From: a virus
Direction: 5' to 3' (one strand)
Length of the DNA stretch: 64,000 bases
Virus record (IMG/VR): IMGVR_UViG_3300032087_004407
Location: 14,890 to 78,889 of that record
The notes beneath the pieces are model-generated. The model ran no database searches and was not told the DNA's origin. It saw only the letters and a program-made list of their open reading frames with translations. Below are positions 8,511 to 26,438 of this stretch, piece after piece (position 1 is the first letter of the stretch; each line of letters opens with the position of its first letter). The translations under genes were made by a program, and so were the position numbers.

Positions 8511-10162
8511 AGTAATTACAGTTAATGGCGCGAAGTTAATTGTTTACGATTTAGATTCCACTTATGAAATTCATATTGTTAAATCAGCGATCAAAGATGA
8601 AATACAAGCGTTGTATATCATCAATTATTTAGCAGATGAAGGATTTTTACCAGAAGAAAAACCAGTAGGAATAAAACTCATACCAGAAAAGTGAAAGCAT
8701 ATTCAGTAATTGACATAAAAAAATCTATCAGTAACCCTCCAAGAGTTACTGAAAAATACAAAGGAACTATGATATACGATCATAAAACTGCTGGTACTCT
8801 ACAAATTATGAGTCCAAATGAATATGATGGTTTCAAAAAAGTAACCAGTAGAAAAGGTCAGAGTTCAGTTTTAAGAAATGTTTTAGATGCAGGAGGTAGA
8901 TTACAATGACAACAAAACAAAAATTAAATTTTATAGCAGAGCAATATCCAGAATCATTAACAGCCGATGGATTTGATGACGCGATAATCGGATTCGACGC
9001 AAGCGGAGGAAATGTTATTTATGATTACACTAAATGCTTGAAAATCTTAATGGAAAGAGATAATATGGATTATACAGATGCTCACGAATATATGGAATTT
9101 AATGTTGTGAGTGCGTATGTAGGAGACTTAACACCTTATTTCATGCACAAGTTATGAAAATTAAAATACCGATTAATTATGATGAGATCAAAAAAGAAGA
9201 AGTTATTGTATTAGCAAATTTACCAGAAGATAAATGCAAAGAAATTTTAGTCGAGTTCTTTGGTAAAATGAAATACAAACAAAGACGCAAATGGCTCAAA
9301 AATAACTTAACAGAAATAGACGTTTACAGATTGGACAATCCCGATGAGTATAACGATGAGTAAAGAAAATTTAAAAAAATTTATTAAAAAGTACAAAGAA
9401 ATTAGTGACTGCGAAATTGCTCCCAATGACTCAAAGATAGGGCATAAAAAGAAAAGCGAGAGAGAATGGCTAAAATACGATAAAGATATATCATGGAAAC
9501 AAGGAGCAGATGAATTGATGGCAGCATTACGAATAGACATAGATTATCTAAAAAAATACAATGAACTTGACCAGTAAACAACAACAAATTTTTGATAAGA
9601 TTAAATCGGTAGACGCTGATTGGGGCGAAAAAGATTTTATTAAATGTTGGAATGATATATTAGATTTAAATAAATTTGTTAGCGTTTCTCAAGGTAAGTT
9701 AGTTTTAGAATTTGACGATGCTAGTTCTGTTCTTATAAAGTTTGTGCAAGATAATAAAGTATTACTTCAAGAGAGAATATATTGGAACGAAAAAATACCA
9801 GTTACATTAGAAGAAAAAAATAATGAAGTTAAACAAGCAGCACAATCAATTAAAATGCTCGCAGACTCAATTATTAATAGTTAATTAAAATGTCTTGGGA
9901 AAGAGATTTCGAGGGAATACCATTACAAGAAAAGCATACAATTTACAGTTTTCTTTTTCGCATTAATGAAACAAACCACACTTACGAAACAATTTGCGAT
10001 AAAGAGTTAACAGCAAAAAGAAGATACGGCAGACATTTAAAAAAATTTGGTGATGCAAAGTTGGCAGAAATAATATCTTTCTGGAAATACGTTTGGGAGA
10101 ATGGAAAATTAGTTGACGATAAAATAATATATCACTTTCGCGGTTTACACGAAGAACAATGA
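8503..10162 (+). other. Run of short overlapping hypothetical phage ORFs
   Basis: Tightly coupled ORFs (8691, 8906, 9154, 9344, 9561, 9890); 8906..9157 has the common phage motif ADGFDDAIIG...YVGDLTP. Confidence 0.6.
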
Positions 10163-10632
10163 CTTTAAAATCTGCAAAAAAATTAGCAAAAGAAATGATG
10201 CGAAAACATAAAGTAGATCACGTTTTTGATTTTAGCTTTATGGATTCCAAAACTACATTTGGTATATGCTATGATTCACCAGATTATTTAATACAATTAA
10301 GTATTCCGTATGTGCGATTAAATGGCAAGAAGGCAGTTCTCGACACGATACTGCATGAGATTGCCCATGCAAGGGATATTTTAAACAGAGGGTACACAAA
10401 GCACGATAAGGTTTGGAAAGAGCTTTGTAGGGACATTGGATGCTCAGAGAAGGCTACGTTTGACTCGCTTGAAGATAACGTGATTATGCCACTAGCACCG
10501 TATGTGGTGATATGTCAAAAATGTGGTTACTGCGAACCCAAGTACAGAAAACCGTCAAAGAAACCAAGCGTATGCCAAGGTTGCGGTTACAATAATGGAC
10601 TTTATAAACTAATCAAACAAAATGACAATTAA
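10159..10632 (+). CDS. SprT-like zinc metalloprotease
   Basis: TILHEIAHA...HDKVWK plus C-terminal CxxC...CxxC. Confidence 0.8.
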   Translation: MTLKSAKKLAKEMMRKHKVDHVFDFSFMDSKTTFGICYDSPDYLIQLSIPYVRLNGKKAVLDTILHEIAHARDILNRGYTKHDKVWKELCRDIGCSEKATFDSLEDNVIMPLAPYVVICQKCGYCEPKYRKPSKKPSVCQGCGYNNGLYKLIKQNDN

Positions 10633-10854
10633 CGAAGCAATCAATAAAGTACAAGATGTATGTATGTCTTACGCACTTGATTTAGAAAAAGAATCAAAAG
10701 AAGTAAAAGACGAAGCTACTGCAAAAGCAATGGATGAAGAATCAAAACAATTAATTAAAGCCACAAGAAAATTAAGGGAATTTATTTCAAATTCTATTGA
10801 TGATGGTAAATAATTTGCTTGACTATTGATATGTGTTTTGCTATAATACTCCCC

Positions 10855-11259
10855 ATGAAAGACATTGATGTACGTTGGGTCGAAAACAGTAAGACCAAAA
10901 AGACTTCCCTCAAGACGATCTCAAGAGAAAAGTACAATGATTATCCAGAAGGGACTGCTACTGTTCAGCTTGAAAACATCAAATCAAAAAACTCAGATGC
11001 AAAAGTCTGGTTTATATTTGAAGGCAAAAATGATGTAGTTACCGAATGGGATTACCAAAAACAAGCAGGAGTATCTCGCGGTATCGTATGGAGAACAACC
11101 GTGCAAGTCGATTTAGTTTACAAAGAAAACATTGACGATTACTATATGTATATCAACTTTCCGAATGGCAAGTACAATGCACCATTACTTAATGGCGAAG
11201 AATTTAGTTCACTTTATCACACGGTTAACAAGATTAAAAATCAACTAAAGTTACTTTGA
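10855..11259 (+). CDS. Hypothetical protein, paralogue of 11982..12341
   Basis: Leaderless promoter 10819-10847; shared MKDI..V.W..N.KT...P.G..TV....I.S....A.V(W/Y)F. Confidence 0.6.
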   Translation: MKDIDVRWVENSKTKKTSLKTISREKYNDYPEGTATVQLENIKSKNSDAKVWFIFEGKNDVVTEWDYQKQAGVSRGIVWRTTVQVDLVYKENIDDYYMYINFPNGKYNAPLLNGEEFSSLYHTVNKIKNQLKLL

Positions 11260-11981
11260 AAATATTTAATTATATAAAAGATGGCATCTGCGAACCAATA
11301 ACAGCAGAAACTCGCAAAGAAGCAAATGAATTGTTTATTGCTACATTTGATGTAAAAATAGACGAAGTTAAAACAGACAACGACAAAGATCAATACAAAT
11401 TTGAGTTTTATGAAACAGCAAAGTAATCGCGAAGATCATCCATACTTTCAAGAATTAAGAAATCCTTATCCTATGAAACAGCAAATTAACAATAAATGTG
11501 TTACATCTTCTACGATCAATGTAGATGATTGGATTATTGAAGCTAAAAGCGCACATAACGATGGATATACTCAATTATATTACAAGACACTACTACGCGA
11601 TTTAAAAGATCGACTTAACTCACTACAATTTTTAAACGAATACAATCATGGCGAAAAAAACGACAAGTAACAACAAGCAAGTTCTAAACGAGAAAAAACG
11701 CAACAAAGGAGTTCACGCAAAGAACAAAACTTCGTGGAACCCAAACAGCAAAAACTATAAAAAAGCATACAGAGGTCAAGGTCGATGAACAGATTAAGTG
11801 AATTAAACATTAGTATCCCTCTTGTAAAGCGAGAGTTTGATCGAACTATCAACAGTATTGCTTCGTGGAAAAACCAATACACAACCAAAATGGAAATTAA
11901 TCTAACCAAAGATTTAATGCGATTAACTGAAAAGTGGGAAAAGAAAGCTCAAAAAGAAGCAGGATGGTAAATTTTAAAAAC

Positions 11982-12341
11982 ATGAAAGACATTAGTAAAA
12001 ACGTATATTGGGAAAGAAATATCAAAACGAGACGCAATCCTAATATTGCCAGCCAAGTTATTCCAAAAACTTCTACTGATAATTTTCCGCATGGTGCGGT
12101 AACAGTACGTTATCAGCATATTACCTCAAGCAGACCAAGCGCGTCAGTATATTTTTATGGCAAATCTTATAACAATGGTTTGAGAAATTGGCCAAGTAGC
12201 AAATTGATTGTTTACATTTCTCCTGCGACAAATGGAGGTTATCACTACAATTATAATGGTCATTCAAAAAGCGATACGTTTTCTTTGCGTGACGTTACTA
12301 ATTACTGCGAGTACATTCAATCAGAAATGGAGAATATGTAA
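11982..12341 (+). CDS. Hypothetical protein, paralogue of 10855..11259
   Basis: N-terminal similarity to 10855 ORF. Confidence 0.55.
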   Translation: MKDISKNVYWERNIKTRRNPNIASQVIPKTSTDNFPHGAVTVRYQHITSSRPSASVYFYGKSYNNGLRNWPSSKLIVYISPATNGGYHYNYNGHSKSDTFSLRDVTNYCEYIQSEMENM

Positions 12342-12843
12342 TGGCAGAAAAACCCAAAGTAAAACCTAAAGCTAAATCTAAACCAAGCAAAAGTAAATCT
12401 ACTGCTGGCAAAGGCGACAATCCTAGAAATTGTTTTTCAGATGATTACAGAGATAATTACGACAGCATAGATTGGTCAAGTGCGAAAAATATTTAAATTT
12501 ATTAAAAAATGGGATTTGATATGGGTAATGTTTCTTGCATTTATAAGTTTGATTTTAGCATCAATACTTATGCTCGCAGTAGCGCATTACATAATTAAAC
12601 ACATTTTTTAGTGTAATTATATGACCATGAAAACAGATGACTTGAAAGACAGAGTAGATGTAATACTCATGGAATTGCATGAATTAGAAAACAATGCTAC
12701 AAGATTAAAGCAATATGCTGCTAAATTAACTAAAAGCATTTATGAAGTTAATAAAAAGTTGCATCAAATTCCAATTCCAAACACTATTGAAGAAGATGAT
12801 AACTCCGAAATGGAGATATTTGGCGAAGAATAAATAACAAATC

Positions 12844-12920
12844 GCGTAAGTCTTTGAATGCCAGAGACTTACGCTTTTTAAATTTCCAAAGTCGTAACTC
12901 TCTTATAATCAATGAGTTAC
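12844..12920. repeat. Two 7-13-7 inverted-repeat elements (IHF-consensus-like)
   Basis: GTAAGTC-13-GACTTAC (12846-12872) and GTAACTC-13-GAGTTAC (12894-12920); AATCAATGAGTTA fits WATCAANNNNTTR. Confidence 0.6.
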
Positions 12921-13555
12921 AATCACCAAAAACACATTTAATGACATACAAAGAATTATTATATAAAATGGCTCAATTGGGTATGCTCACTTTGTCCAAT
13001 GATAAAGATGGCAGAGGTTTGTTTTGGGTAGGTATGGACAACATGAATGCACTAGAAAAAGAGTTCGATTGGAAGGACTTTGAAAATATTCATGTAAAAG
13101 AAAAAGAATACTATATAGATAAACAAGGCAGAAAAATGGAAAAACATACAAACTACGAATATGTTCAACCACTTTTCAGCGAAAAAAATCCTTGACATAG
13201 ACCGTATATTGGTATATAATATTGCCCTCTTGAACATGGAAGAATCATTTGAAACACAATGCAGGTTTTGCGGCGAGTCTCTTAACATACCAGAGGACGA
13301 ACACTTACTCGGAGAAGGTCATATTCACATTGAGTGTGAAATGGATTACGAGGAACTAACCAGTTATTCACCAACAGATTTGTGGTAATATGTATTTAAG
13401 CAGAACAACTTGCGATACAATAGAAAGAGAAATTGCTCGCGAAAAATACAAAGTTGTACGAGATTATAAAGTGAGTAGCTATTGGAATGACCCTGCACAA
13501 CAATGGGACAATCCAGAATTAAGAGCAGAAACGATTGCTAGATTAAACAAAAAAA

Positions 13556-13882
13556 ATGCACAATAAAGAAAATTGCTCTGTCTGCGACAAACCAATCAAA
13601 GGTAAATGGGACAGTCAAATTCACCTAGCCTTGGAAACAGGAGAATTAAAGAAGGATAGTGCGTACAAGCACTTTATACGAGACAAGCACATAAAATGCT
13701 CTCCAAGCCGCGCACAACGCATTATACACCCTCAATTCCCAACCGTTGTAGATAACAGACCACAATTCGATATACGACGAGGTTTACGTTGCTGGACAAA
13801 CGAGGACAGAGAAAAGTGGATAAAGACATATACAGAGGCATGGGTAAGATTACAAGAAAAGTATAACCCTAATTGGAAATGA
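13556..13882 (+). CDS. Hypothetical protein with CxxC motif
   Basis: ORF in operon context. Confidence 0.55.
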   Translation: MHNKENCSVCDKPIKGKWDSQIHLALETGELKKDSAYKHFIRDKHIKCSPSRAQRIIHPQFPTVVDNRPQFDIRRGLRCWTNEDREKWIKTYTEAWVRLQEKYNPNWK

Positions 13883-14148
13883 AAAACATATTAATTATAT
13901 TATTAGTATTCGCGGCTACAATAAGCGCACAACAATTCAAAGTAACATTTTTACCAGATGGCAAGGTTATGATTGCACCAGACTTGCCAGATAACCACAA
14001 TGGCACTTTTACATACTTTGTTTTAAACAAAGAGACACAAAGCGTAGAGAATATGTTTTACAATCATACAGAAGCAATAATGTATAATCAAAAAGTTAAT
14101 GGTAATATACTTGTAACACCAAACATTTATTAAAATTTTAAAAAAACT

Positions 14149-14358
14149 ATGGCACATTTCATTAAATTACATACGGCAGGACAAAACCAAGAGATATTGT
14201 TTAACCTTGATACAGTTGTAAGTATTGAACCATACGGCGAACATTCTACGATTATGACTCGCTGGAGTCACCAAAATGTAAAGGAAAGTTTGGACGAAAT
14301 ACAAAAACTAGCACAAGGACAAGGACAAACAGTTGCTAAATTCAATGATATTGGATAA
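14149..14358 (+). CDS. FlbD/SwrD-like small protein
   Basis: FIKLH...FNLDTVVSIE...TI...VKESLDEI resembles the FlbD family pattern. Confidence 0.5.
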   Translation: MAHFIKLHTAGQNQEILFNLDTVVSIEPYGEHSTIMTRWSHQNVKESLDEIQKLAQGQGQTVAKFNDIG

Positions 14359-15230
14359 TTAGTAATTAGTAATTACAAAATATCTTTTTTGTTATTAGAA
14401 ATTATTATTGTTGTTTTACTATGGTTTATCTTATTAATATACATAAATACATATAGAGAGAATACATACAAAGAATAGAATACATAATAAATACAATAAT
14501 AAAATGAATATTAATAATAATATTAAAATAATAAATAAAATAGTGAAAAAGGTGCGCGACTTAAATATATTTAAATATACCGTTAGTTCCCGTATTCTAC
14601 CATAATCTACCCAACAAGTCAATAAAATAATTAAATGATAATTAATTTCAATATTTTTAAAGTTTTACAAATTTGTTTTTATTTCGGTTTATTTGTCTTT
14701 ATGTATTATCTATTAGACAATAATCCACTAAATAATATATTCTTTTATTTAATGGTATTATGTATGATAGGTATTGATTATACTAGCTATTACAATGGAG
14801 TAATAACAGGAAGCAATAAAGCAATAATTAAATTCATGGAACAAATAAATAAAAGAGAAAATAAATTAAAAGAATTAGAAAGCCGCGAAGTTAATTGAAA
14901 ATAAAAATAAATTAAATTAAATAAAAAAAAATTTAAAGCATTGATAATCAATGAGTTACGCATTCGCCGCAATTTAATTGCAAATAAATTAATTATTAAT
15001 TAAATAAATTAAATAATAAATAATAAAAAAGGCCAAAAAAATTAAGTCATTGATAATCAGTAACTTAGTTTACTTTGCTACCAGTAAAAATACAACTTGC
15101 CGCAAAACTTAATTGCAAATAAAAAAATTAATTATTATCTTTTTTAATTAAATAAAATTTAATTGTTAATTAAAGTATTTAATGTTTTTTATTGAATTTT
15201 AGCTTGACTTGTGTAATTATATATAGTACA
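14359..15230. other. Extremely AT-rich, mostly non-coding region with repeats; candidate replication origin
   Basis: GCCGC-N3-5-TTAATTG(C/A)AAATAAA at 14882, 14966 and 15099 (variant at 15635); IHF-like boxes at 14933-14959 and 15042-15068; leftward promoter 14594-14622. Confidence 0.45.
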
Positions 15231-16082: not shown

Positions 16083-16164
16083 TTGACAGCGGCGGAATTT
16101 TTTGGTAAAATGTTATTGAGTCTCAGTCTCAACGGGGCCCCTAGGGCCCCCCCAGCATGTCAAG
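16083..16164 (+). repeat. GGGGCCCC element A, with sigma70 promoter and 7-1-7 box
   Basis: TTGACA-17-TAAAAT, TGAGTCTCAGTCTCA, GGGGCCCCTAGGGCCCC, TGTCAAG. Confidence 0.8.
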
Positions 16165-16170
16165 AAAAAA

Positions 16171-16245
16171 TGGTGGGTCGAGTGAGGTTCGAACTCACAA
16201 CCAATAGCTTAAAAGGCTACTGCTCTACCGTTGAGCTACCAACCC
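16171..16245 (-). tRNA. tRNA-Lys (UUU), CCA encoded
   Basis: Cloverleaf: acceptor GGGTTGG/TCGACCC, anticodon arm GTAGC-CTTTTAA-GCTAT, TTCGAAC T-loop, ACCA end. Confidence 0.95.
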
Positions 16246-16249
16246 ATGA

Positions 16250-16324
16250 TGGACGCGCAGGCTGGAATCGAACCAGCTCAAAAGACTTTTGCAGAGTCCC
16301 GCCTTACCATTCGGCCACTGCGCG
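16250..16324 (-). tRNA. tRNA-Cys (GCA), CCA encoded
   Basis: Acceptor CGCGCAG/CTGCGCG, anticodon loop CTGCAAA, T-arm GCTGG-TTCGATT-CCAGC, U73 discriminator. Confidence 0.95.
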
Positions 16325-16332
16325 GTTAATGG

Positions 16333-16611
16333 CTACCAATCGCAGCAGCCACCGTAGTCTTCATCAGTTCCCCAGCCAGCACTTGCCAACGCATCAGCAT
16401 CAGCTTCGGCATCGCTGTTAAACTGATCTTCGTTCCATGTGATCTCGACATCGTCGATAGACCACACAGTCTCAGCAACATCGTTATGCTTCCACACAAC
16501 ATCTGTGCAATTTTCCCATGCGCATTCAATCGCATCCTCAAGTCCTTCGTGAGACTTTGGAAACTCGCGGAATGTTCCGCCCTCTTCTATAACTTGGTAA
16601 CAGTTATCCAT
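16333..16611 (-). CDS. Small acidic protein, paralogue of 21707..22000
   Basis: Shared FNSDAEADADALASAGWGxDEDYGGC tail; own promoter TTGACT..TATACT at about 16621-16648. Confidence 0.8.
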   Translation of the reverse strand: MDNCYQVIEEGGTFREFPKSHEGLEDAIECAWENCTDVVWKHNDVAETVWSIDDVEITWNEDQFNSDAEADADALASAGWGTDEDYGGCCDW

Positions 16612-16644
16612 AACTTCTTTAGTATAACAAATTTTTCGGTAAAG

Positions 16645-16875
16645 TCAAGCACTAAAGTGTGCTAAAAGACTTTCTGCAGATTCCGCATCGCGGCTTATCG
16701 TACGAGCGTTTTCCAACTCTTTTATCGCAGAGGTTAAGATGCGCCTGATATCGTCCGTTTCACACCATTGTGTTTCTAGGTTGTCAACGACCCACTCAAG
16801 AGTACCTTCGACTCCTGCAATCTCCATACGCGCTTCTGTTTGCGTTGGCTTTTGTAGATATGCATTCTCTGACAT
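16645..16875 (-). CDS. Hypothetical protein (MSENAYLQ...)
   Basis: Promoter TTGACA..TATACT immediately upstream; its stop codon lies in the next -35. Confidence 0.7.
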   Translation of the reverse strand: MSENAYLQKPTQTEARMEIAGVEGTLEWVVDNLETQWCETDDIRRILTSAIKELENARTISRDAESAESLLAHFSA

Positions 16876-16936
16876 AACGAGGACAGTATAGCACGCTTTT
16901 TGCCATGTGTCAACATCTTTTTTACACATATTTTTT

Positions 16937-16967
16937 GCTTGACTTTCGAGGGGCCCCCCTGTCAAGC
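16937..16967. repeat. GGGGCCCC element B
   Basis: GCTTGAC-TTTCGA-GGGGCCCC-CCT-GTCAAGC, between divergent blocks. Confidence 0.85.
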
Positions 16968-17129
16968 TTTTTCTGTGTAAATTTAATTGAACTTTTTTCT
17001 TGCAATGTTTTCCAAATGTGATATAATTATACGCGTCAAAGGGGAAAGCTACCTGAGACAACCAAGCCAAAAAAAAGTTGAATTTTTTGCTTGCAATCGG
17101 AAAAAGTTTTTGTTATAATTATCGGACTT

Positions 17130-17897
17130 ATGAAAGGACTAATGTTACATTGTGGCGCACACGCAGTAGAGCGTGAGCAAGTTGCTGAGGTTAACACTCC
17201 CCAGCGCACGGAGACTTGGACTCCAATTTCTCACGAGTACTTGATCGATGAGGTCAGTCGTACTCTCAACGCCTCTCGCATGAATATTGCAGAGGAATCA
17301 CACGCCTTGACCCGTGATGGTCAACGCTACTTCGGGTTGTTTCGCATCGAGTCACAGGACTTGGCAAACAAGGACTACTCCACCGTGATGGGTCTACGCA
17401 ATGCACACGACAAGTGTTTTCCTGCTGCCATCGCATTTGGTGCAAGCGTTTTCGTTTGCGACAACCTATCGTTCTCTGGTGAGACTCAATTGGCTCGACG
17501 CCACACCAAGAACATCTTCCGCGATTTGCCGCAGGTCATTTCGCGCACCATTGGCCAACTTGCTGACAAGTGGTCATTTCAGGACAAGCGTTTCGACGCT
17601 TATCGTAACACGGACATCTCCGACAAGGAGGCTTGTTTCTTGGTTCGCGAGGCTTATCGTGCTGGTGCTTGCAAAAAGACCGACGCGATGGACATTCTCG
17701 ACCAATGGGAAAAGCCCAACCATCCTGAGTTCGAGGATCGCAATGCTTGGAGTCTCTTCAACGCATTCACCGAGGAGTTGAAAGGCAACTTGATTGCCCT
17801 CCCCAAACGCACACAAGCTCTTCACGGCTTGCTTGACGGTCACTGCGGTGTTCTTTCCGCAGATGAGTTACCCGCCACCAACGTCATTAACAATTAA
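17130..17897 (+). CDS. DUF932-family protein
   Basis: TWTPISH, RYFGLF, GLRNAHDK, VFVCDNLSF, RRHT, WSLFNAFTE; promoter TTGCAA-17-TATAAT at 17091-17119. Confidence 0.75.
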   Translation: MKGLMLHCGAHAVEREQVAEVNTPQRTETWTPISHEYLIDEVSRTLNASRMNIAEESHALTRDGQRYFGLFRIESQDLANKDYSTVMGLRNAHDKCFPAAIAFGASVFVCDNLSFSGETQLARRHTKNIFRDLPQVISRTIGQLADKWSFQDKRFDAYRNTDISDKEACFLVREAYRAGACKKTDAMDILDQWEKPNHPEFEDRNAWSLFNAFTEELKGNLIALPKRTQALHGLLDGHCGVLSADELPATNVINN

Positions 17898-18168
17898 TCG
17901 AAAGGATTTTTTGATATGGTACATCATCACCTAAAGAGCGTGCTTAATCGCACCAAAGGTCGTTTCACCAGTTTCTTGGTGAAGGATGGTTCTCGCCTCG
18001 GCTTGAGCGTATACAGCGCCAAGCACGTGAGCGCAACTCCTAAGTCTGTAGTGTTTGAAGACACGAACGGCGCAGGACGCAAGCGCATCGCTCGCGAGAA
18101 TATCTTGGTCGCTCAAGTAGCGAACGACGTATTCTACCGCAAGTAGAATCAGGGACATTCCCAAAGCA

Positions 18169-18200
18169 CCCGCTCACACTTGTTGTGAGTGGGATTTTTT
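18169..18200 (+). terminator. Intrinsic terminator
   Basis: CCCGCTCACA-CTTGT-TGTGAGTGGG-ATTTTTT. Confidence 0.8.
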
Positions 18201-18238
18201 GCTTGACACGATCGGGGGGGCCCCTCCCAGATGTCAAG
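18201..18238. repeat. GGGGCCCC element C
   Basis: CTTGACA...GGGGGGGCCCC...TGTCAAG. Confidence 0.85.
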
Positions 18239-18296
18239 TCTTTTCTTTGCTGATTTTAACGCTTGACTTTTTCCGTCAGTCTGCTATACTGTTCAC

Positions 18297-19186
18297 ATGA
18301 ATGAGGGATTTATTGCTTACACTAAAGACAACATCAACCTTTTTAGGTTGTTATCATTGCGCAGTGCGTTAAAACTAGAGATAGTTGGCATGAAAAAGCG
18401 CGGACGTTCAGCTTACAGCATTATCAAAGAAGAGTTTGGATTTAAAGGTAGCAAAGAATCAGTATTGGCAGACTTGCAAGAGTTAATCGCACAAAAAAAA
18501 GATGAAAACACTACAAGCGTACAAAAAGATAAGAAAGCCGCTTCCTCCCCCTTCATTCCCCTTGCCGAGCAAAAAAACTTACTCAAGGAAGAAAAAGTTC
18601 AAAAAAGGGGTTGACATAGGAGAATAGGTGTGCTATAATTATCGCGTTGTTTGAGAGAAGTATGAAGACTGTTGAAATGGAAAACTACTTGGAAGACATG
18701 GCTCAGGTTTTATTCGGCCGTGGTCGCAAGGTTGCAATGGACAACCAACTGTGTGTGATGTGCGGAGGTGACGCGAATTACTTCGCGGATGAGCTTTCCC
18801 GCAAAGAGTATGGCATATCTGGTATGTGCCAAGAGTGTCAGGACAAAACTTTTGCTTGACATACGACAAAAACTCTGGTATAATTTACGGACTTTATGAG
18901 AAAAGAAGTTGCTATAAGCGAAGGTCAGTTGTACAAGTTCAAAGGTGCAACGGTGCGTGTGGTGAAGCCAACCAACAACGATATGTGGTTGGTAACTGGT
19001 AAAGGACAGCTTTGGGGTTTCGCCAAAGACAGTCAGTTGGGCAAAGCGTCCAACAGAGAGAAGAGAGCTTACGAAGGTAAGCCAAGTTTAGTGGATCGAT
19101 TTTTAGGTGCATCAGAAGCACTTGGTGCGAAAGTTGGCCTATTATCCGTAGCATTGGTTATCGCAACGATAGCCGTTCTCTCATAA
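18297..19186 (+). other. Three small single-promoter ORFs (18297..18614, 18647..18859, 18896..19186)
   Basis: Each has its own sigma70 promoter (18263, 18611, 18856); 18647 ORF has CxxC...CxxC. Confidence 0.7.
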
Positions 19187-19192
19187 CAAACA

Positions 19193-19470
19193 AGTCAGAC
19201 TGGGCTGACTATAAACAACCCAGAAAATTTTCTCGTTCGACGGAGCGAGATAGGTGTGGCTGAATAAATCTTCGCCTAGAGGATTAAGGCACGCTTAACA
19301 GAACCAACGGCCAAGTGGCAGAGGAACTGTTGGGTGGTTTGAGTAGAGATCACTGAACTTGATCTAGGACTCGAAAGATGCAGGTAATCAATGAATCCTG
19401 TCACCATTTTTAATTTTGAGTTGGCGAGTTAAACACGCCTCCATCGCCCCCAAGGGACAGGGATGGTAAG
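19193..19470 (+). ncRNA. Structured non-coding RNA region: H-type pseudoknot plus multi-stem RNA (possibly manA-motif-like)
   Basis: No ORF; successive stems with G-U pairs at 19231-19250, 19251-19297, 19304-19333, 19341-19372 and 19380-19401. Confidence 0.6.
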
Positions 19471-19518
19471 ACATTTTACGCTTTATTGCTGGTGGCGCGG
19501 CAACAACTCATTTTTTTC

Positions 19519-19556
19519 CTTGACTTTTTGAGGGGGGCCCCCCACCCATGTCAAGC
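19519..19556. repeat. GGGGCCCC element D
   Basis: CTTGAC...GGGGGGCCCCCC...TGTCAAG. Confidence 0.85.
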
Positions 19557-19617
19557 TTTTTCTTTGCTGCTTTTTCTTATTGACTTATTTTTTGAATGTG
19601 CTATAATGTTCCCCGTT

Positions 19618-19761
19618 ATGAGAGAACAGATTGAAGAAAAAATTGCACAATGGGTTGATGACCTCGAACGCACTCCGCATTATCCATACCTCGACAAAAT
19701 TGTCACAGATGAGGACGTCGAAAAACTTTGCGAGGTTGTAGAAAAAATGTTTGACAACTAA
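19618..19761 (+). CDS. Small hypothetical protein (MREQIEEK...)
   Basis: Promoter TTGACT-16-TATAAT at 19580-19607. Confidence 0.6.
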   Translation: MREQIEEKIAQWVDDLERTPHYPYLDKIVTDEDVEKLCEVVEKMFDN

Positions 19762-19789
19762 CCCTGTATCTGCTATACTTTTTCCCGTT

Positions 19790-20536
19790 ATGACAAACAA
19801 CTTGCTAAAATTCGGATTTGAGAACGCTAAACTAAAAGGCATTTGGCATTTCAGCTTGCCAAGTGGTTGGACTTGCCCCGCTGCCACGGTGTGCATGACA
19901 CGCGCAGACAAAACCACAGGAAAAATTTCTGACGGTAAAAACCAAGAGTTTCGTTGTTATGCTGCTATGGACGAGGCACGTTATCCCACAGTCCGCAAAG
20001 CGCGTTGGCACAATTTCGATTTGCTAAAGAATTTGACCAAGGATGAAATGGTCGAGCTTATCTCGGACAGTTTACCCGCTGGCCTTCGTCGTGGTGGTTT
20101 GCTTCGTGTGCATATAGGTGGCGACTTTTTCAAGGCAGATTATTTTCAGGCATGGAAAGAGGTTGCGGAGAAGTTTAAGAAGATTACCTTTTACGCTTAT
20201 ACAAAAAGCCTTCACATTTGGGAGAAGTTCGTCAACGTCATTCCCGACAATTTCATTCTCACCGCATCCAAAGGCGGGAGATTCGACGAGAAAATCGAAT
20301 TGCTTGGCTTAAAAAGTGCCGAGGTTTTCTTGAGCGAAGAAGAAGCGACTATGGCAAACCTTGAGATTGACCACGACGACAGCCATGCTTGGGAGGGCAA
20401 AGAGTCTTTTGCCTTGCTTATACATGGACAACAAAAAGCTGGCAGCAAAGCCAGCGAAGCCCAAAAAGCCTTGAGGAAAAAAGGCATTCACGGCATCAAG
20501 CAACACAAAAAAAAGGAGGTGACTGTTGCCGCTTGA
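19790..20536 (+). CDS. GP88-family protein (radical-SAM-related fold)
   Basis: FSLPSGWTCP..C...CYA, RVHIGGDFF, FYAYTKS; promoter TTGACA-17-TATACT at 19751-19779. Confidence 0.7.
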   Translation: MTNNLLKFGFENAKLKGIWHFSLPSGWTCPAATVCMTRADKTTGKISDGKNQEFRCYAAMDEARYPTVRKARWHNFDLLKNLTKDEMVELISDSLPAGLRRGGLLRVHIGGDFFKADYFQAWKEVAEKFKKITFYAYTKSLHIWEKFVNVIPDNFILTASKGGRFDEKIELLGLKSAEVFLSEEEATMANLEIDHDDSHAWEGKESFALLIHGQQKAGSKASEAQKALRKKGIHGIKQHKKKEVTVAA

Positions 20537-20596
20537 TATCATTATCTTAGGAGCATTGTTTTACGGTAGTTGGTTAGTAGTTAATGATATAAAAAA

Positions 20597-21028
20597 ATGA
20601 GTAAAAAGAACTTGATAAGAACGTGGCTAGATCACCCCCCAAAAGGTAGGGTGCAGGTATACTACAACTTGCACAAAAAATGTTTGTCAATTAGGTACAA
20701 AGGAAAAGTAATTGAACACGCTCGCGAAGTTACGTTGACTGATGCGCGTTTTCATGTTCAACCCGCAGGCCGTGCGCGCGTACTTCGTGAAAAGAAAAAG
20801 AACGTGCACGCTTACGTTTCGGGAAAGCTAAAAGAAAGTTTTTGGTTCACGCAAGCACCCGCCTACGTTTGGACTGCTGAAAAGCGCGTGACATACAACC
20901 CATATAAAAACGAAACTTTCGTTGATAAATCAAACAACGAAATCGTAACCAGCGCAGAGGTTGTACATATTGCAGACAAAGTTATAACTGCTGGACAATT
21001 TGATCAAAAAAATCGTCGAGCTTGGTAG
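20597..21028 (+). CDS. Conserved phage hypothetical protein
   Basis: VYYNLHK..LS, GRARVLREKKKNVHAYV, VTYNPYK motifs. Confidence 0.7.
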   Translation: MSKKNLIRTWLDHPPKGRVQVYYNLHKKCLSIRYKGKVIEHAREVTLTDARFHVQPAGRARVLREKKKNVHAYVSGKLKESFWFTQAPAYVWTAEKRVTYNPYKNETFVDKSNNEIVTSAEVVHIADKVITAGQFDQKNRRAW

Positions 21029-21127
21029 GTCGAATTGCAATACAATTAAATAGCAAATCAATAAATAGTAAATACAAAACCTCAAGCACTATGTAAACAA
21101 TTATTAAAAAAATTAAATTTCATAATC

Positions 21128-21164
21128 GGCAGGGGCCCCCCTCCCCCAGCACGAACCGTGCCAG
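21128..21164 (-). repeat. GGGGCCCC element E, fused to a sigma54-like box
   Basis: Minus strand CTGGCACGGTTCGTGCT-GGGGGAGGGGGGCCCC; at the convergence point of the two blocks. Confidence 0.8.
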
Positions 21165-21323
21165 TTACTCGCCAGTCCAGCAAGTATCACCAGCCCAGCC
21201 GAAGTCCTCTGTGTAGACCTCCTCCAACTCCACCTCACCAGCGAAGTCGTGCTGCTTGGCCTCACGCGTCAGAGCCGCGTCCTGCTCATTCATCCAGTCG
21301 ATATGCTTATCCTTTTCACTCAT
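21165..21323 (-). CDS. 52-aa acidic protein (MSEKDKHIDW...), not in the ORF track
   Basis: Translated by hand; own promoter TTGACT..TAAACT. Confidence 0.7.
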   Translation of the reverse strand: MSEKDKHIDWMNEQDAALTREAKQHDFAGEVELEEVYTEDFGWAGDTCWTGE

Positions 21324-21368
21324 AACAAAAACAGTTTAACAGAATTTAAAAAAAAGTCAACTAAAAAA

Positions 21369-21560
21369 TTAACCCGCCATGGAATCATCCCAGACGACCT
21401 CACCCTTGAACGTGACGCACGCGCCATTGTCAAAGGCCAACTTGATGGCTTTTTCAAGACCATCGTGAGAACGCGGAAAACCAGCAGTGCCAAGCTCCCA
21501 CTCCACCTGATACATATCAGCCAACATTTCGTCGAACGAGTTCAGTTTCATATCTCTCAT
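21369..21560 (-). CDS. Small protein sharing the SH(D/E)GLExAI motif with the acidic paralogues
   Basis: FPRSHDGLEKAI vs FPKSHEGLEDAI; own promoter. Confidence 0.7.
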   Translation of the reverse strand: MRDMKLNSFDEMLADMYQVEWELGTAGFPRSHDGLEKAIKLAFDNGACVTFKGEVVWDDSMAG

Positions 21561-21638
21561 AACGGAAAACAGTATATCACACTTTCAGATAATTGCAAGC
21601 ATTTTTTTGCATTTTTATTTATTTTTTTTACACGCAAC

Positions 21639-21691
21639 TTGGCACGACATCTGCTGGGGAGGCGGGGCCCCCGTGATGATAAAATTACAAT
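21639..21691 (+). repeat. GGGGCCCC element F (sigma54-like box; near-identical to G)
   Basis: TTGGCACGACATCTGCTGGGGAGGCGGGGCCCC...GATGAYAAAATTACAAT. Confidence 0.9.
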
Positions 21692-21706
21692 ATTTTTATA
21701 CGGCGA

Positions 21707-22000
21707 TTAGTACTCGCAATCGTAGCATCCGCCGTAGTCCTCATCCATACCCCAGCCCGCGCTGGCCAACGCATCCGCGTCAGCTTCCGCGTCAGAGTTG
21801 AAGCCGTCCCACGGCTCGTCTGCATCAAAAGACCCAGAATCCTCAAACGACCAGACCAACTCGGTCTCACCGTCACGCTCACACATAACGTCAGCACCAA
21901 TTTCATTGGCAGCTTCAATCGCGTCCTCAAGCCCGTCATGGCTTACGTCAAACATACGGTGCAAACCGTCCTCGTCAATTACATAGTACATATTACTCAT
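21707..22000 (-). CDS. Small acidic protein, paralogue of 16333..16611
   Basis: 29 D/E in 97 aa; shared C-terminal motif. Confidence 0.8.
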   Translation of the reverse strand: MSNMYYVIDEDGLHRMFDVSHDGLEDAIEAANEIGADVMCERDGETELVWSFEDSGSFDADEPWDGFNSDAEADADALASAGWGMDEDYGGCYDCEY

Positions 22001-22033
22001 AACAAAAAAAGTCTACCAGAATTTTAAAAAAAG

Positions 22034-22189
22034 TCAAGCACATTCAGGGCATGACTCAAAAAACTTACACCAGCACCGATCATCGGCCTCGTCTTCGACA
22101 TTGTCGAAACCGTTCGGGACGGTCACACCAGCGACCCATGCATCGGACTCCATCTCAAACACCTCTTCACAAGTAATCATATCTCTCAT
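22034..22189 (-). CDS. 51-aa acidic Cys-rich protein (MRDMITCEEV...), not in the ORF track
   Basis: Translated by hand; own promoter TTGACT..TATACT. Confidence 0.7.
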   Translation of the reverse strand: MRDMITCEEVFEMESDAWVAGVTVPNGFDNVEDEADDRCWCKFFESCPECA

Positions 22190-22288
22190 AACGAAAAACA
22201 GTATATCACAATTTCCCGAAAAGTCAACACTAAAAACAAACTTTTTTTCAAAAAATTAACTTTTTTTTCAGTATAAAATCGCTGACAT

Positions 22289-22342
22289 TTGGCACGACAT
22301 CTGCTGGGGAGGCGGGGCCCCATGCGATGACAAAATTACAAT
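22289..22342 (+). repeat. GGGGCCCC element G
   Basis: First 33 bp identical to element F. Confidence 0.9.
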
Positions 22343-22401
22343 GTTTTTTTCTTTCATTTAGGAAGGCGGCTAGGATTAACCTAGCCACCTTCCATCGAAC
22401 C

Positions 22402-22611
22402 CTACATGATGTTGATGCCTTGGCGTTTGAACCATCGGCGCAACTCGTGTATCGCCTTTTCGCTCGGGTGAGCGAGGTACGGCGTAACCTCTGGGTTTGG
22501 GGAAAAGTAGAACGTGCCTTTCCTTGTAGGCTCGAGACGAAAGCCCAGCTTTAGTGCTTTGCGCTCGATTTTTTTGTAGGTAGAAGATTGATGCTTGTTT
22601 GCCATACTCAA
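22402..22611 (-). CDS. Small basic protein, possibly HicA-like fold
   Basis: LKLGFRLEPTRKG.FYFSP...HPSEKAI..LRRWFKRQG; hairpin 22361-22393 downstream. Confidence 0.35.
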   Translation of the reverse strand: MSMANKHQSSTYKKIERKALKLGFRLEPTRKGTFYFSPNPEVTPYLAHPSEKAIHELRRWFKRQGINIM

Positions 22612-22629
22612 TTATTCTTTGTAACATTA

Positions 22630-23493
22630 TTATTTGCCGAAGTAGTCGTGATCTTCGAAGATGTTGTCAATTCCGATAACCTCCCACACGTCGCCGTTTG
22701 TCCATTCGTTATTGAACTGCTCGGCCTTAAACAGTTTGTCCATGTCCTCTAGTCTTGTTTCGATGGGAAACGTGGTGTGAACTCGGGTGCAGCCTGCGTG
22801 GATGTGCTGGCCTGTAAACTCAGGGTTTCTGCGTGTCTTGAACACTACCTTCCAGAATGTCTTTCTTTCTCTCATAACTTCAAACAGTCTATCACAATTT
22901 TCTCTAAAAGTCAACTCTTTTTTTCAACTTTTTTACCATTCCACAACTCGGAACCATTCGCCCTTTACGCGCCTATTTAATGGCGTGTAACTTGTCCACT
23001 CTTTCAAGGGAATCTCTTTGACTGTCCGCACTCCATCAACCCAAGGTCCCATGACCTTAACCGTTTTTTCTTTCATATTCTTATCTCTCATAACTTCAAA
23101 CAGTCTATCACAATTCTTTTCAAAAGTCAACACTTTATTTCATCTTTTTTTTCATGTGGTCAGCCCATTCTTTGGCTCGCCTTTCGCGGTCTGCGATTGC
23201 CAACATTGGAAAATCTTTGTCCTTTTGTGTTGGTGGTAGTGTGAACATTCCGCGTTTGAATTGTTCCCACGTTGGGCGGTCGATTGGGTGAATGTTTTCC
23301 CATGCTCGTTTCAGTTCTTTTCGTTGTTCTATTTCTCTCATGTCGGTTTCTAGTATACAGATTTTTTTGATAAAGTCAAGTCTTAAAACGGTATTTTGTT
23401 GACTAAAAAGTCCACCGCTTTTTCGATGAATTCGTTCGTGGCATCAACCGCCTTTTCGATTTTGTCATTTAGAGCGTCTATCACGTTCAACAT
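22630..23493 (-). other. Four tiny single-promoter ORFs (22630..22875, 22933..23091, 23135..23341, 23383..23493)
   Basis: Each has its own TTGACT promoter and a very short leader; the 32-bp promoter/start unit is duplicated at 22868-22899 and 23084-23115. Confidence 0.7.
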
Positions 23494-23568
23494 GCGTATA
23501 TTAAACCACAGATTGGCCCGAAAGTCAAGAGTTAATTTCACTTTTTTTTCTTTTTTTTTATCTGATAA

Positions 23569-23620
23569 TGAGACACAGTCTCAACGCGGCGGGGCCCCGC
23601 CCGAGGGCGGGTGTGTCAAC
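23569..23620. repeat. GGGGCCCC element H, with 7-1-7 box
   Basis: TGAGACACAGTCTCA-ACGCG-GCGGGGCCCCGC-CCGAGGGCGG...TGTCAA. Confidence 0.8.
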
Positions 23621-23626
23621 TACTTT

Positions 23627-24142
23627 TTATAGTTTATAAAAAGCGTGCTGACCGATCACCTTGACTGGCTTCTGTCCTTTTGCCCAGTACGGTTTCTTTT
23701 TCATCCACGTTGCGTGGTAGTGGTTAGCGTAGCCAATGAAGTCACGTGACAAACTCTTGACGTTCTTCGCCACGGTGATGGCGTACTTCGCCTGTGGTGT
23801 CTTGAGTAGATGCTCAAGATCTTTAACACTCTTGCCATTCCAGCAACTGAACTGCCATTTCTTAAGACAAACTTCTGTTGGTGTTTGTTTACGTTCAAAC
23901 GCTCGCTGCGCTATGCACGCACCAACCGCATACATACCAGCCTCACCTTCACCCCTAGCCTCTGCTAGTATAGTGATGGCAACCACCTTAACCTCATGAG
24001 TTAACTGATGATTTTTATGTGTGTGATTAGCTTGTGCGCTAGTCCACCACAACAAGCAACTGCTTACAGTCAACGCCGTGGCGCAAGTACGTGGCATCTT
24101 GTAACCTATCTTGATTAGCTTCAACAAAACCTTGGGAAACAT
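23627..24142 (-). CDS. SleB-like cell wall hydrolase (Hydrolase_2) with a probable signal peptide
   Basis: AITILAEARGEG, WQFSCWN, ANHYHA, PYWA, IGQHAFY. Confidence 0.85.
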   Translation of the reverse strand: MFPKVLLKLIKIGYKMPRTCATALTVSSCLLWWTSAQANHTHKNHQLTHEVKVVAITILAEARGEGEAGMYAVGACIAQRAFERKQTPTEVCLKKWQFSCWNGKSVKDLEHLLKTPQAKYAITVAKNVKSLSRDFIGYANHYHATWMKKKPYWAKGQKPVKVIGQHAFYKL

Positions 24143-24234
24143 AGTAATTCTTTTTTTTAAGTTTATGATTTTTTTTATCTACTAAAGCGAAGGCGGGAAT
24201 GTCTCCGCTTACCATTGTCAACAACCAACCGAGG

Positions 24235-24495
24235 TCAGAGGATGTCGTCATCCTCCTCCTCGTCGTCGGTGTACTCGTCGTATAGCTCGCGGAAGGCGGG
24301 AGACAATGCGCTCATGTCGCAAGTGTTCTCGTCGCGCTCGTCGAACCAATCGTCATCTGGCGTAGTGCCAAGAATGTCGCGTTCGCAATCTACCTCGTCC
24401 TGTGTCGCGTACGTCACGGCGAAGTCCTCGATGGGGTCAATGTTATAGTCGTCCATAACTTCGTTTAATGTACCAGAAAAATTGTCCATTGTCAA
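24235..24495 (-). CDS. Extremely acidic small protein
   Basis: 31 D/E versus 3 R in 86 aa. Confidence 0.7.
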   Translation of the reverse strand: MTMDNFSGTLNEVMDDYNIDPIEDFAVTYATQDEVDCERDILGTTPDDDWFDERDENTCDMSALSPAFRELYDEYTDDEEEDDDIL

Positions 24496-24505
24496 CCTTT
24501 TATTT

Positions 24506-24679
24506 TTATTCTTCCAAGTATTTCACGCAGTCCTCAACAGACCAATCGTTTCTCATGGCCCATTCAACCGCACCTTCAACGTCGCAGTATTGGCGCACTT
24601 CGTCGCACACCAAAGACTCAACTTCAGCCAAGAACTTCTGGGAGTTCAACTCGTTCATCGTATGTGGATTATCTCTCAT
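24506..24679 (-). CDS. 57-aa acidic protein (MRDNPHTMNE...), not in the ORF track
   Basis: Translated by hand; own promoter TTGACT..TATACT. Confidence 0.7.
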   Translation of the reverse strand: MRDNPHTMNELNSQKFLAEVESLVCDEVRQYCDVEGAVEWAMRNDWSVEDCVKYLEE

Positions 24680-24733
24680 AACGGGAATCAGTATATCAGA
24701 TTTTTTTTAAAAGTCAACCTTTTTTTAGTTTTT

Positions 24734-24916
24734 TTATCCCCAGTCGCCTTGCTGGCGGCGCTTTTGGGTGAACCAGAACATTTCCGCATTAGCTTTGCGC
24801 TTGCGCTCAGCTAGCTCGACCTCCTGTGCCTCGATGGCATCATTCTGCCACTCATCACACATTGCATTCAACTCGAAGATCTCTTCACAACTCAGGTTAT
24901 CAAACGTAGTATTCAT
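24734..24916 (-). CDS. Small hypothetical protein, first gene of the leftward block
   Basis: Promoter TTGACT..TTTAAT at about 24962-24990. Confidence 0.6.
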   Translation of the reverse strand: MNTTFDNLSCEEIFELNAMCDEWQNDAIEAQEVELAERKRKANAEMFWFTQKRRQQGDWG

Positions 24917-25033
24917 TTTTTTATTCGTTAGGCGGTGGGCTTTCCCTCACTCGCTGGAAACATTAAACCATGGATTGAGGAAAAAGTCAACACCTAAAAC
25001 AACTTTTTTTTATTTTTTTTTCGTGCGTCGCAG

Positions 25034-25050
25034 AGCACGTGCCGTGCCAA
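25034..25050 (-). promoter_or_regulatory. sigma54-like -24/-12 box
   Basis: TTGGCACGGCACGTGCT (GG-N10-GC). Confidence 0.55.
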
Positions 25051-25275
25051 CACACCCCGTTTTTTCAAAAAAATTGACGCGTCAGGTGGGGCTACGCAGG
25101 GGTACGGCCTATTTTTCAATATCGACTAGAGTTTCCCACAAACCAAATAAATCTAAACAAAAAAAATAACCCAGCCCAAATCCCCAGAAACCAATTAAAT
25201 AAATTAAAAAATAAAAAGGAAACAACCCGCCGCGAATACTCTAGAATTTCATATTTTTAAATATATTATTAAATT

Positions 25276-25983
25276 ATGGATTGTAAAACTTGTAAAACGT
25301 GTGGAGTAGAAAAATCATTAAGTGAATTTTATAAAAGTAAAAAGTATAAAAATACTCAGTATTATAACTCTTACTGCAAATCATGTAACAGCAAACAAAA
25401 ACAACAATATTATCAAAAAAAAAGAGAAGCAATACTAGCCCGCCAGAAAGAATATGCTGCCGATCCTAAAAATAAAGAGGCAAAACTAGCCTACATGAAG
25501 GAATATAACGCTGATCCCAAAAACAAAGAAAGGCGAAAGAAATATGACGCTGACCCTAAAAACAGAGAAAAAATAAGGGTGCAGCAAAGAAAATGGCACA
25601 AAGAAAGAAGACAATCTGATCCTTTGTATAAGTTAGTATGCAACATAAGAACTCGCATTAGCGTAAGTATCACAAATGCAGGATTCAAAAAAAACAGCAA
25701 AACACACAAAATTTTAAATTGTTCTTTTGAAGAATTTATGTCACACCTTGAAAAACAATTTAACTCAGGAATAACATGGGAAAATTATGGAAAATGGCAT
25801 TTAGATCATATTGTGCCTGTATCATTAGCTTCTACAGAAGAAGAAATAATAAAACTAAATTATTATAAAAACTTTCAACCTATGTGGGGTCCAGAAAATG
25901 AATCTAAAAGCAATAAAATTATGCATGAAATGATAACCCCTGAACTACAAGAAAAATACAAAGAAATACTACAAAGAGTTTAA
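25276..25983 (+). CDS. HNH endonuclease with N-terminal Zn finger and internal K.Y.ADPKN repeats
   Basis: CxxC...CxxC; TWENYGKWHLDHIVP...NFQPMW..EN..KSNK. Confidence 0.8.
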   Translation: MDCKTCKTCGVEKSLSEFYKSKKYKNTQYYNSYCKSCNSKQKQQYYQKKREAILARQKEYAADPKNKEAKLAYMKEYNADPKNKERRKKYDADPKNREKIRVQQRKWHKERRQSDPLYKLVCNIRTRISVSITNAGFKKNSKTHKILNCSFEEFMSHLEKQFNSGITWENYGKWHLDHIVPVSLASTEEEIIKLNYYKNFQPMWGPENESKSNKIMHEMITPELQEKYKEILQRV

Positions 25984-26020
25984 TTGTAGAAATTAACAAC
26001 TTTTCAATATATTATTTTCT

Positions 26021-26380
26021 ATGTCAGATAAATGTTTTGAATGTGGCGCTCCCGCAGAATGTAATCATCATGTTGTACCAAGAAGCCTTGGAGGAACTCA
26101 AACAATACCATTGTGTTTAGTTTGTCACGGAAAAATACATGATAAAGATTTTGTTAAAGCAAAGCGACTGCAAAAAATAGGGTTCGCTAAGGCAAAGGCA
26201 GCAGGCAAACATATAGGCAGATTTTCATCTACCAATGAAGCCCAGGATCGTGAAATAGTTAAAAGATATCAAGACGGCGAAACTTATGAGGAAATTGGGA
26301 AAAAATTCAACATTAGTCGTATGAGTATTTGGCGCAGACTAAAAAAAGCAAATGCAATAAAAGATTCGCAACCTGCGTAA
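26021..26380 (+). CDS. HNH-like zinc domain fused to a resolvase-type HTH
   Basis: CFEC..HHVVPRSLGG...LCLVCH; AKAKAAGKHIGR followed by HTH. Confidence 0.65.
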   Translation: MSDKCFECGAPAECNHHVVPRSLGGTQTIPLCLVCHGKIHDKDFVKAKRLQKIGFAKAKAAGKHIGRFSSTNEAQDREIVKRYQDGETYEEIGKKFNISRMSIWRRLKKANAIKDSQPA

Positions 26381-26421
26381 AAAACAACACGCAAAACTTC
26401 AAAAACCCCAGTAAAATTCAC

Positions 26422-26438
26422 TTGGCACAATATTTGCT
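26422..26438 (+). promoter_or_regulatory. sigma54 (RpoN) promoter of amt
   Basis: TTGGCACAATATTTGCT matches TGGCAC-N5-TTGC; 14 nt before ATG at 26453. Confidence 0.75.

Follow-up and report, generated by a model that had tools for sequence, protein, structure and literature searches.

To our knowledge, all promoter-early stem-loop elements (PeSLs) described so far are from T4-like phages, mainly from a few pairs of isolates. Phages RB49 and phi1 were reported to carry the motif repeatedly in their hyperplastic regions, with a sigma70 early promoter, an AT-rich stretch and a polyG/polyC stem-loop combined into a unit that terminates transcription and mediates insertions and deletions (indels) (Arbiol et al., 2010, PMC2839356). 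Most indels between RB49 and phi1 adjoin a PeSL and one crossover lies inside the loop, and the authors speculated that GGGG...CCCC might be the target of a recombination protein (PMC2839356). PeSLs were later extended to T4/PST and KVP40/nt-1 (Comeau et al., 2014, PMC4122927). Here we analysed a 64,000-nt window (bases 14890-78889) of the 78,889-bp IMG/VR viral contig IMGVR_UViG_3300032087_004407, which carries eight copies of the palindromic octamer GGGGCCCC in an island of very small genes. The elements built around this core are a PeSL-type variant in a new phage lineage and not an undescribed kind of system, because every PeSL feature that can be tested in sequence is present except residence in a T4-type phage. 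A first, sequence-only reading had called the system undescribed and held that PeSLs lack this architecture; the published description matches, and the second statement was incorrect in view of the terminator activity, PeSL-bounded indels and loop crossover just cited. The PeSL logic, in which a promoter and a G/C stem-loop make small genes exchangeable, is now found in an unrelated clade of uncultivated marine phages.

GGGGCCCC starts at window positions 16134, 16950, 18217, 19534, 21132, 21664, 22314 and 23591 (elements 1 to 8), against a mean of 0.10 copies and a maximum of 2 in shuffled windows. All eight copies lie between genes, at spacings of 532-1598 bp. The sequence-only reading had the positions, the excess over chance, the absence from the rest of the window, the intergenic placement and the spacing of 0.5-1.6 kb right; it had also asked whether the octamer is common elsewhere in the genome, and no ninth copy occurs anywhere in the contig. 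Every core of the contig falls inside a 9-kb island (~16.04-25.13 kb) of open reading frames (ORFs) encoding 36-255 amino acids (aa), with a GC content of 44-46%, compared with 25-38% in the flanks and ~33% in the genome. Gene direction is leftward between 16913 and 16171, rightward between 17000 and 21030, and leftward again between ~25000 and 21140, and the strand switches at ~16.1, 16.95 and 21.1 kb coincide with elements 1, 2 and 5, as had been claimed. Also borne out was the paralogous cargo in different blocks: the 92-aa acidic protein at 16333-16611 is a paralog of 21707-22000 (79% over 86 nt), with a C-terminal peptide in common.

The first relative, IMGVR_UViG_3300030090_005624 (R1), was found via the neighbouring amt gene; it is ~90% identical to window 19222-25243 and carries five cores. 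Scanning metagenomes for the GP88-family protein gave 53 marine contigs, and elements are present in almost all of those whose GP88 protein identity is 68-99% and in none at 51% or below. The comparison set comprised 39 related marine contigs, the window and R1 included. These contain 80 GGGGCCCC sites (70 distinct), or 128 sites if any G3-8 C3-7 tract counts as a core. As judged from these sequences, what is conserved is a run of G and then a run of C, both variable in length (GnCm), and not the exact octamer, since relatives carry G3-8 C3-7 at equivalent places; the octamer sites of the first reading were real, but its definition of the element was too narrow. No GGGGCCCC arrays accompanied the DUF932 relatives (25-52% identity) or the GP88 relatives (46-50%) found elsewhere among viral contigs, so the elements belong to one clade and not to the cargo genes. 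A sister phage (L009; 133.8-kb contig, amt 83% identical) has homologous arms and heterogeneous GC-rich cores. Its inter-cassette elements, at 800-3850 of that contig, are ctgataat...acttac inverted repeats with the cores GGGCCGCGGCCC, GCGCGGCGC and GCGGCGGGC.

Origins outside the clade were considered and rejected. As a host repeat family, the two-arm pattern gave 67 scattered matches in 185,579 species genomes, one site per stretch; no genome had several copies in the manner of repetitive extragenic palindromes (REPs) or bacterial interspersed mosaic elements (BIMEs), and the matches were mostly in high-GC taxa, consistent with chance. A first pattern scan of viral contigs likewise returned mostly chance matches in high-GC prophages. 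Several TTGAC..GGGGCCCC..GTCAAG sites occur in an unrelated 116-kb viral contig (IMGVR_UViG_3300031800_000001; L032/L199), which may be another phage with the same type of element.

Alignment of the window with R1 in MAFFT revealed three indels longer than 100 bp, two of them core-to-core. Window 21671-22350 is missing from R1; beginning with the last base of core 6, the gap comprises the 650-bp core 6-core 7 unit plus a replaced right arm. Where the window has core 8, R1 carries an additional 310-bp unit (R1 3760-4069) bounded exactly by cores, and this site occurs in three states: without insert, with a 299-bp cassette (R1) and with a 473-bp cassette (contig L078). The third indel, beyond the island at window 25192-26399, is 1.2 kb of AT-rich sequence that R1 (here 97% identical) lacks. 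It contains the endonuclease VII/HNH-like ORF and the 119-aa ORF of Table 1, and a free-standing homing endonuclease has probably inserted here, between the island and amt.

Cassettes were defined by cutting all 39 contigs at GnCm. The 94 complete core-to-core cassettes obtained fell into 39 clusters, and cassettes of one cluster differ little in length. Their order is fixed in the left half of the island (C5, C2, C3 or C8, C0), and many combinations are found right of C0. Among 58 left-arm types, 17 pair with more than one right arm, a few of these being variants in G/C-run length only. Identity persists to the final base ahead of the G-run and is gone immediately past the C-run, and the ends of BLAST homology are ~3-fold enriched within 5-30 nt of cores. 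Comparison of relatives shows that cassettes are exchanged between related phages, with junctions mapping inside the GnCm tract. Gain and loss breakpoints lie exactly on cores, as expected by the first reading, in which the elements bound exchangeable modules. Inversion breakpoints had been expected at the cores as well; none of the between-contig matches was inverted (0 opposite-strand versus 1086 same-strand), and only the positions of the strand switches fit that part of the proposal. Circular contigs that could be excised cassettes, like the mini-circles formed by recombination between PeSLs, were sought, but terminal repeats were present in 0 of the 53 metagenome contigs. With 128 elements and 94 complete cassettes of 39 types there is enough material to narrow the junction down to the 8-12-nt G/C tract, and this placement makes the question raised for PeSLs testable, namely whether exchange is a by-product of general phage recombination or is helped by a factor that recognises GGGG...CCCC.

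The anatomy of the elements was examined across the 70 distinct copies, 59 of which have a promoter scoring 9-12 out of 12 at 32-65 nt from the core. When a plus-strand promoter stands on the right (24 elements, and 7 more with divergent promoters), the arms are CTTGAC and GTCAAG in 31 of 31, with 32-55 nt from the core to the start of the -35 box, or 133-142 nt where promoters diverge. Every two-armed element (32/32) folds as an arm-closed hairpin with the G/C tract at its apex (dG -9 to -28 kcal/mol), and all but one (31/32) are directly followed by a (C)TTTTTCT-like tail; a scan for terminator-like signals accepted 27 of the 31 plus-promoter elements on the plus strand. By these predictions, the two-armed elements have the architecture of intrinsic terminators. 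In the 28 elements with a minus-strand promoter on the left, the promoter is mostly 53-65 nt off, the right arm is mostly GTCAA, and the left arm is a 7-3-7 palindrome or a sigma54-like box. The spacer between core and -35 box is AT-rich, being T-rich on the plus strand and A-rich on the minus strand, and arm and core are 2-30 nt apart. Four different arm types in the relatives keep a GG-N10-GC spacing beside the core.

The eight elements of the window (Table 1) show the same variety and are not a single repeat, having several arm types. Elements 2-4 follow the pattern GCTTGAC(N6-9)GnCm(N3-8)GTCAAGC and then TTTTTCT. In elements 1 and 8, a 7-3-7 palindrome (TTGAGAC-N3-GTCTCAA) forms the left arm and the right side carries GTCAA(G/C), and the left arm of elements 6 and 7, TTGGCACGACATCTGCT, has one mismatch to the sigma54 -24/-12 consensus. 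A test for a hairpin plus U-tract fitted elements 2-4 and their homologues; elements 1, 5, 7 and 8 did not fit in the direction of their genes. A common hairpin for all eight was rejected, RNA folding beating shuffles only for elements 2, 3 and 8.

Measured against PeSLs, the island has both the near-consensus sigma70 early promoter and the AT-rich stretch upstream of the -35 box; its stem-loops are formed from a G-tract and then a C-tract, here in 128 GnCm cores; the elements occupy terminator-like positions, with termination predicted here, among small non-essential ORFs of a hyperplastic region; and they delimit the insertions, deletions and replacements seen among close relatives. The phage differs in not being T4-type, although rIIA and rIIB are present, a difference in where PeSLs occur and not in how they work. 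The elements themselves also differ. The G and C runs are contiguous, without a separate loop, and invariant, inverted -35-like boxes form the closing stem. Some arms are sigma54-like boxes or the 7-3-7 palindrome. Elements of the minus half are not oriented with their genes; all elements share a single strand polarity. Stem-loops accompany only about a third of the promoters, and the unit of exchange is therefore several promoter-gene units. Identity breaks within the 8-12-nt core, whereas PeSL breaks are spread over ~100 bp. The cassettes also resemble the morons of lambdoid phages, which are independent promoter-gene-terminator units of deviant base composition (Hendrix et al., 2000, via PMC2839356); morons, however, are without conserved flanks or a defined junction, and here a core stands at every boundary.

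We lean towards reading the elements as composite PeSL-type boundary modules of a hyperplastic early-gene island, exchanged through the general machinery of the phage. Each module would run from the G-run/C-run stem-loop through the AT-rich stretch to a strong sigma70 promoter. In the plus-strand half, the CTTGAC..GnCm..GTCAAG(C) hairpin and its T-run would end the upstream unit just ahead of the next promoter. The G/C junction, as the comparison of relatives shows, is the point of gain, loss and replacement of cassettes, which comprise one to five promoter-gene units each. General replication and recombination machinery could use the short core, the common right arm and the T-run as homology, or a template switch could take place at the hairpin; a circle with a single core could integrate at any of the other cores and duplicate it. 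A dedicated recombinase would not be necessary. The variable run lengths and arm-core spacing are the signs expected of annealing or slippage, unlike a fixed recombinase site, and the absence of inversions fits pairing through an asymmetric common flank.

Several observations weigh against this reading. A core of 8-12 bp is short for homologous recombination, and a helper protein is possible. About 85% of the points where homology between relatives stops are not at cores, which qualifies the agreement between breakpoints and cores that the enrichment near them supports; some of these other ends are at promoter repeats, such as the 72-nt repeats flanking a replaced gene at 22933-23076. The closing stem is identical in 32 of 32 elements, with zero covariation, so that conservation acts at the level of sequence and points to a sequence-specific constraint and not to pairing only. 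Minus-side elements are terminator-like for their own genes in 2 of 28 cases and for the plus strand in 13 of 28, from which it follows that all elements have one absolute orientation, regardless of gene strand. The fold z-scores of elements 4-7 are unremarkable.

The best surviving rival, which we regard as unlikely though it deserves to be taken seriously, is a dedicated, integron-like system of site-specific exchange, in which cassettes with their own promoters would be moved by an enzyme from the unsequenced part of the genome or from the host. Such an enzyme would recognise the GnCm junction together with the TTGAC arms or the hairpin, and would cut and join at that point. Junctions that are precise to the nucleotide, a core duplicated upon insertion, at least three states at one site (none, 299 bp, 473 bp), invariant CTTGAC/GTCAAG arms without covariation, and a single absolute orientation with zero inversions despite the palindromic core are all consistent with it, as are the shortness of the common core and the ~43% of the genome that is unseen by the CheckV estimate (completeness ~57%); the same idea was raised by the PeSL authors for GGGG...CCCC (PMC2839356). 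An array of small cassettes in combinatorial order, separated by imperfect palindromes whose core is duplicated on insertion, is likewise integron-like. Integron cassettes are promoterless and co-oriented, unlike those of the island, which bring their own promoters and occur in both orientations, and the crossover here is at the centre of the palindrome and not at its end. An attC reading was rejected, since the R''/L''/L'/R' organisation is absent and the arms do not conform to the R''/R' consensus. Run lengths and arm-core spacing vary, unlike a recombinase site, and the sister phage keeps homologous arms around heterogeneous GC cores. No integrase or other tyrosine, serine or HUH recombinase was found among the ~50 proteins scanned from the ~57%-complete 78.9-kb contig. 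The first reading had seen no recombinase in the window, which holds for the tyrosine and serine families among the scanned proteins; an endonuclease VII/HNH-like ORF, a DNA ligase, an ERCC4-like nuclease and a TnpB-like protein are present, but none of these, nor the UvdE endonuclease, could be linked to the elements. A link to the upstream TnpB-like gene and its repeat units was pursued and dropped, that 14.9-kb region sharing only chance 12-14-mers with the island.

It is less probable still that the elements are terminators or insulators only, with boundaries coinciding because viable exchange moves whole transcription units and with a core that is not recombinogenic. The canonical hairpin and T-run of the plus-strand elements, the position of every element just upstream of a promoter, and the many breakpoints elsewhere, including the promoter repeats around 22933-23076, would all be accounted for. 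Such a role leaves unexplained why identity breaks inside an 8-12-nt apex when the intergenic spacers are 100-200 nt, why 128 of 128 apexes are GnCm despite differing arms, and why minus-side elements do not terminate their own genes. Protein-loading or decoy sites, in which half-promoters (a -35 box with an UP-like AT tract, or sigma54 -24/-12 boxes) facing an unmeltable GC clamp would retain a factor such as host RNA polymerase, to serve as roadblock, reservoir or insulator and possibly on first-entering DNA, are very improbable, for although inward TTGAC boxes with AT-rich, UP-like outer flanks and no -10, the GG-N10-GC spacing of four arm types and a perfect sigma54 box ahead of amt (sigma54 being probably used) agree with such a role, the resemblance is one of sequence alone, the arms differ among element types and core-precise cassette exchange is left unexplained.

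Table 1. Elements, cargo and neighbouring genes of the island. Positions are those of the window, except for the last row.
Feature	Position	Strand	Description
Element 1	16115..16164	+	TTGAGTC-TCA-GTCTCAA left arm, GGGGCCCC at 16134-16141, second run GGGCCCCCCC, right arm ending GTCAAG; between promoter 16083-16111 (+) and the tRNA-Lys 3' end
Element 2	16937..16973	+	Hairpin GCTTGAC..GGGGCCCC..GTCAAGC and T-run, fold z = -3.2; between divergent promoters 16913-16885 (-) and 17000-17027 (+)
Element 3	18201..18246	+	Hairpin GCTTGACA..G7C4..TGTCAAG and T-run, fold z = -3.8; after classical terminator 18169-18193, before promoter 18263-18290
Element 4	19518..19563	+	Hairpin CTTGAC..G6C6..GTCAAGC and T-run; promoter 19580-19607, 38 nt past core
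Element 5	21132..21164	+	Meeting point of convergent plus and minus arrays; right arm a small hairpin, sigma54-like TGGCACG-N4-GTGCT on the minus strand; T-run absent
Element 6	21638..21671	+	Left arm TTGGCACGACATCTGCT, then core; minus promoter 21598-21571, 65 nt away
Element 7	22288..22321	+	Copy of element 6 (33 identical nt)
Element 8	23567..23620	+	ATGAGAC-ACA-GTCTCAA left palindrome, core, CCCGCCC/GGGCGGG hairpin, GTCAAC
tRNA-Lys(UUU) and tRNA-Cys(GCA)	16171..16324	-	First-block cargo
Two mini-genes	16333..16875	-	92-aa acidic protein and 76-aa protein, one promoter apiece
DUF932 protein and 76-aa ORF	17130..18146	+	DUF932 protein of 255 aa
Three mini-genes	18297..19186	+	105, 65 and 96 aa; consensus promoter ahead of each
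manA RNA motif	19231..19411	+	Rfam RF01745; cassette C3
Cassette C0	19618..21028	+	47-aa ORF, GP88-family (248 aa), Phage_L5_gp82-family (143 aa)
Minus array	21165..24916	-	~13 mini-genes of 36-171 aa, mostly with own promoter
SleB-type cell-wall hydrolase	23627-24142	-	Within the minus array
Endonuclease VII/HNH-like ORF	25276-25983		PHROG 1035; abuts the island
119-aa ORF	26021-26380		sigma70 region 4-type HTH, weak HNH match
Six upstream ORFs	2051-3241, 3386-4810, 6071-7264, 8130-9101, 11600-12328, 13279-14373		Contig coordinates

The island encodes tRNA-Lys, tRNA-Cys and ~23 ORFs of 36-255 aa, among which Pfam recognised the DUF932, GP88-family, Phage_L5_gp82-family and SleB-type hydrolase proteins. 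This cargo pool (DUF932, L5 gp88/gp82, acidic mini-proteins, tRNAs and manA) is early and probably serves host takeover or anti-defence, and the elements account for its turnover. The manA motif matches the full length of its model with 51.9 bits (E = 3e-11), compared with a gathering score of 55.2, and sits in a 320-nt non-coding stretch 5' of element 4; in several relatives the cassette that carries it is replaced by C8.

Promoter-like sites in the island number 35, with 16 expected, and nearly every mini-gene has a promoter of its own. These are near-consensus sigma70 promoters (TTGACa-N16/17-TATAaT) that group into repeat families of 37-72 nt. In ~20 promoters between 16600 and 24920 the distance from the -10 box to the ATG is usually 9-11 nt, and a Shine-Dalgarno sequence is absent; given this distance, the mini-gene mRNAs would be nearly leaderless. 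The mini-genes frequently start with ATGAGAGA, encoding Met-Arg-Glu/Asp. The promoter at 16083-16111 (+), which scores 11/12 as a sigma70 promoter (TTGACA-17-TAAAAT), fires into element 1, antisense to tRNA-Lys and tRNA-Cys. This arrangement is kept in two relatives (L078 and L129), and it could give rise to a small RNA or to antisense transcription.

A perfect sigma54 -24/-12 consensus (TGGCAC-N5-TTGCT) is found at 26423-26438 (+), just upstream of amt, and because it precedes this neighbouring gene sigma54 is probably in use. Boxes with one mismatch occur at 21640 and 22290 (+) and at 21148-21163 (-), beside cores 6, 7 and 5, and at 25034-25049 (-) on the right edge of the island; such boxes point into the minus-strand array.

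The contig encodes rIIA, rIIB, the large terminase subunit, a tape-measure protein of more than 2000 aa, PhoH, DNA ligase and a clamp loader, together with the ERCC4-like nuclease, UvdE endonuclease and TnpB-like protein mentioned above. Its portal- and capsid-sized proteins have no match in Pfam or the PHROGs, and on account of this and of the length of the tape-measure protein, the phage is assigned to an uncultivated marine lineage that is not recognisably T4-type. A megablast search of the island against phage GenBank records gave no match. The 14.9 kb upstream of the window (contig 1-14889, L204) contains a set of auxiliary metabolic genes unusual for a phage, with PurT-like, PurM-like, serine hydroxymethyltransferase, spermidine synthase-like, UvdE UV endonuclease and 474-aa TnpB/Cas12f-like products.

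A role of the core as a target of restriction or methylation was rejected, the 'methyltransferase' PHROG match being the serine hydroxymethyltransferase and GGCC occurring at the expected frequency (95 copies). CCGG is absent from the 78.9-kb contig, where ~90 copies are expected from base composition; it is also absent from R1, occurs about once per 160 kb over the element-bearing contigs and has a normal frequency in the sister clade (L006-L009). The absence points to a CCGG-specific restriction system of the host as a strong selective force, and avoidance of CCGG may be a reason why the cores run G then C and never the reverse.

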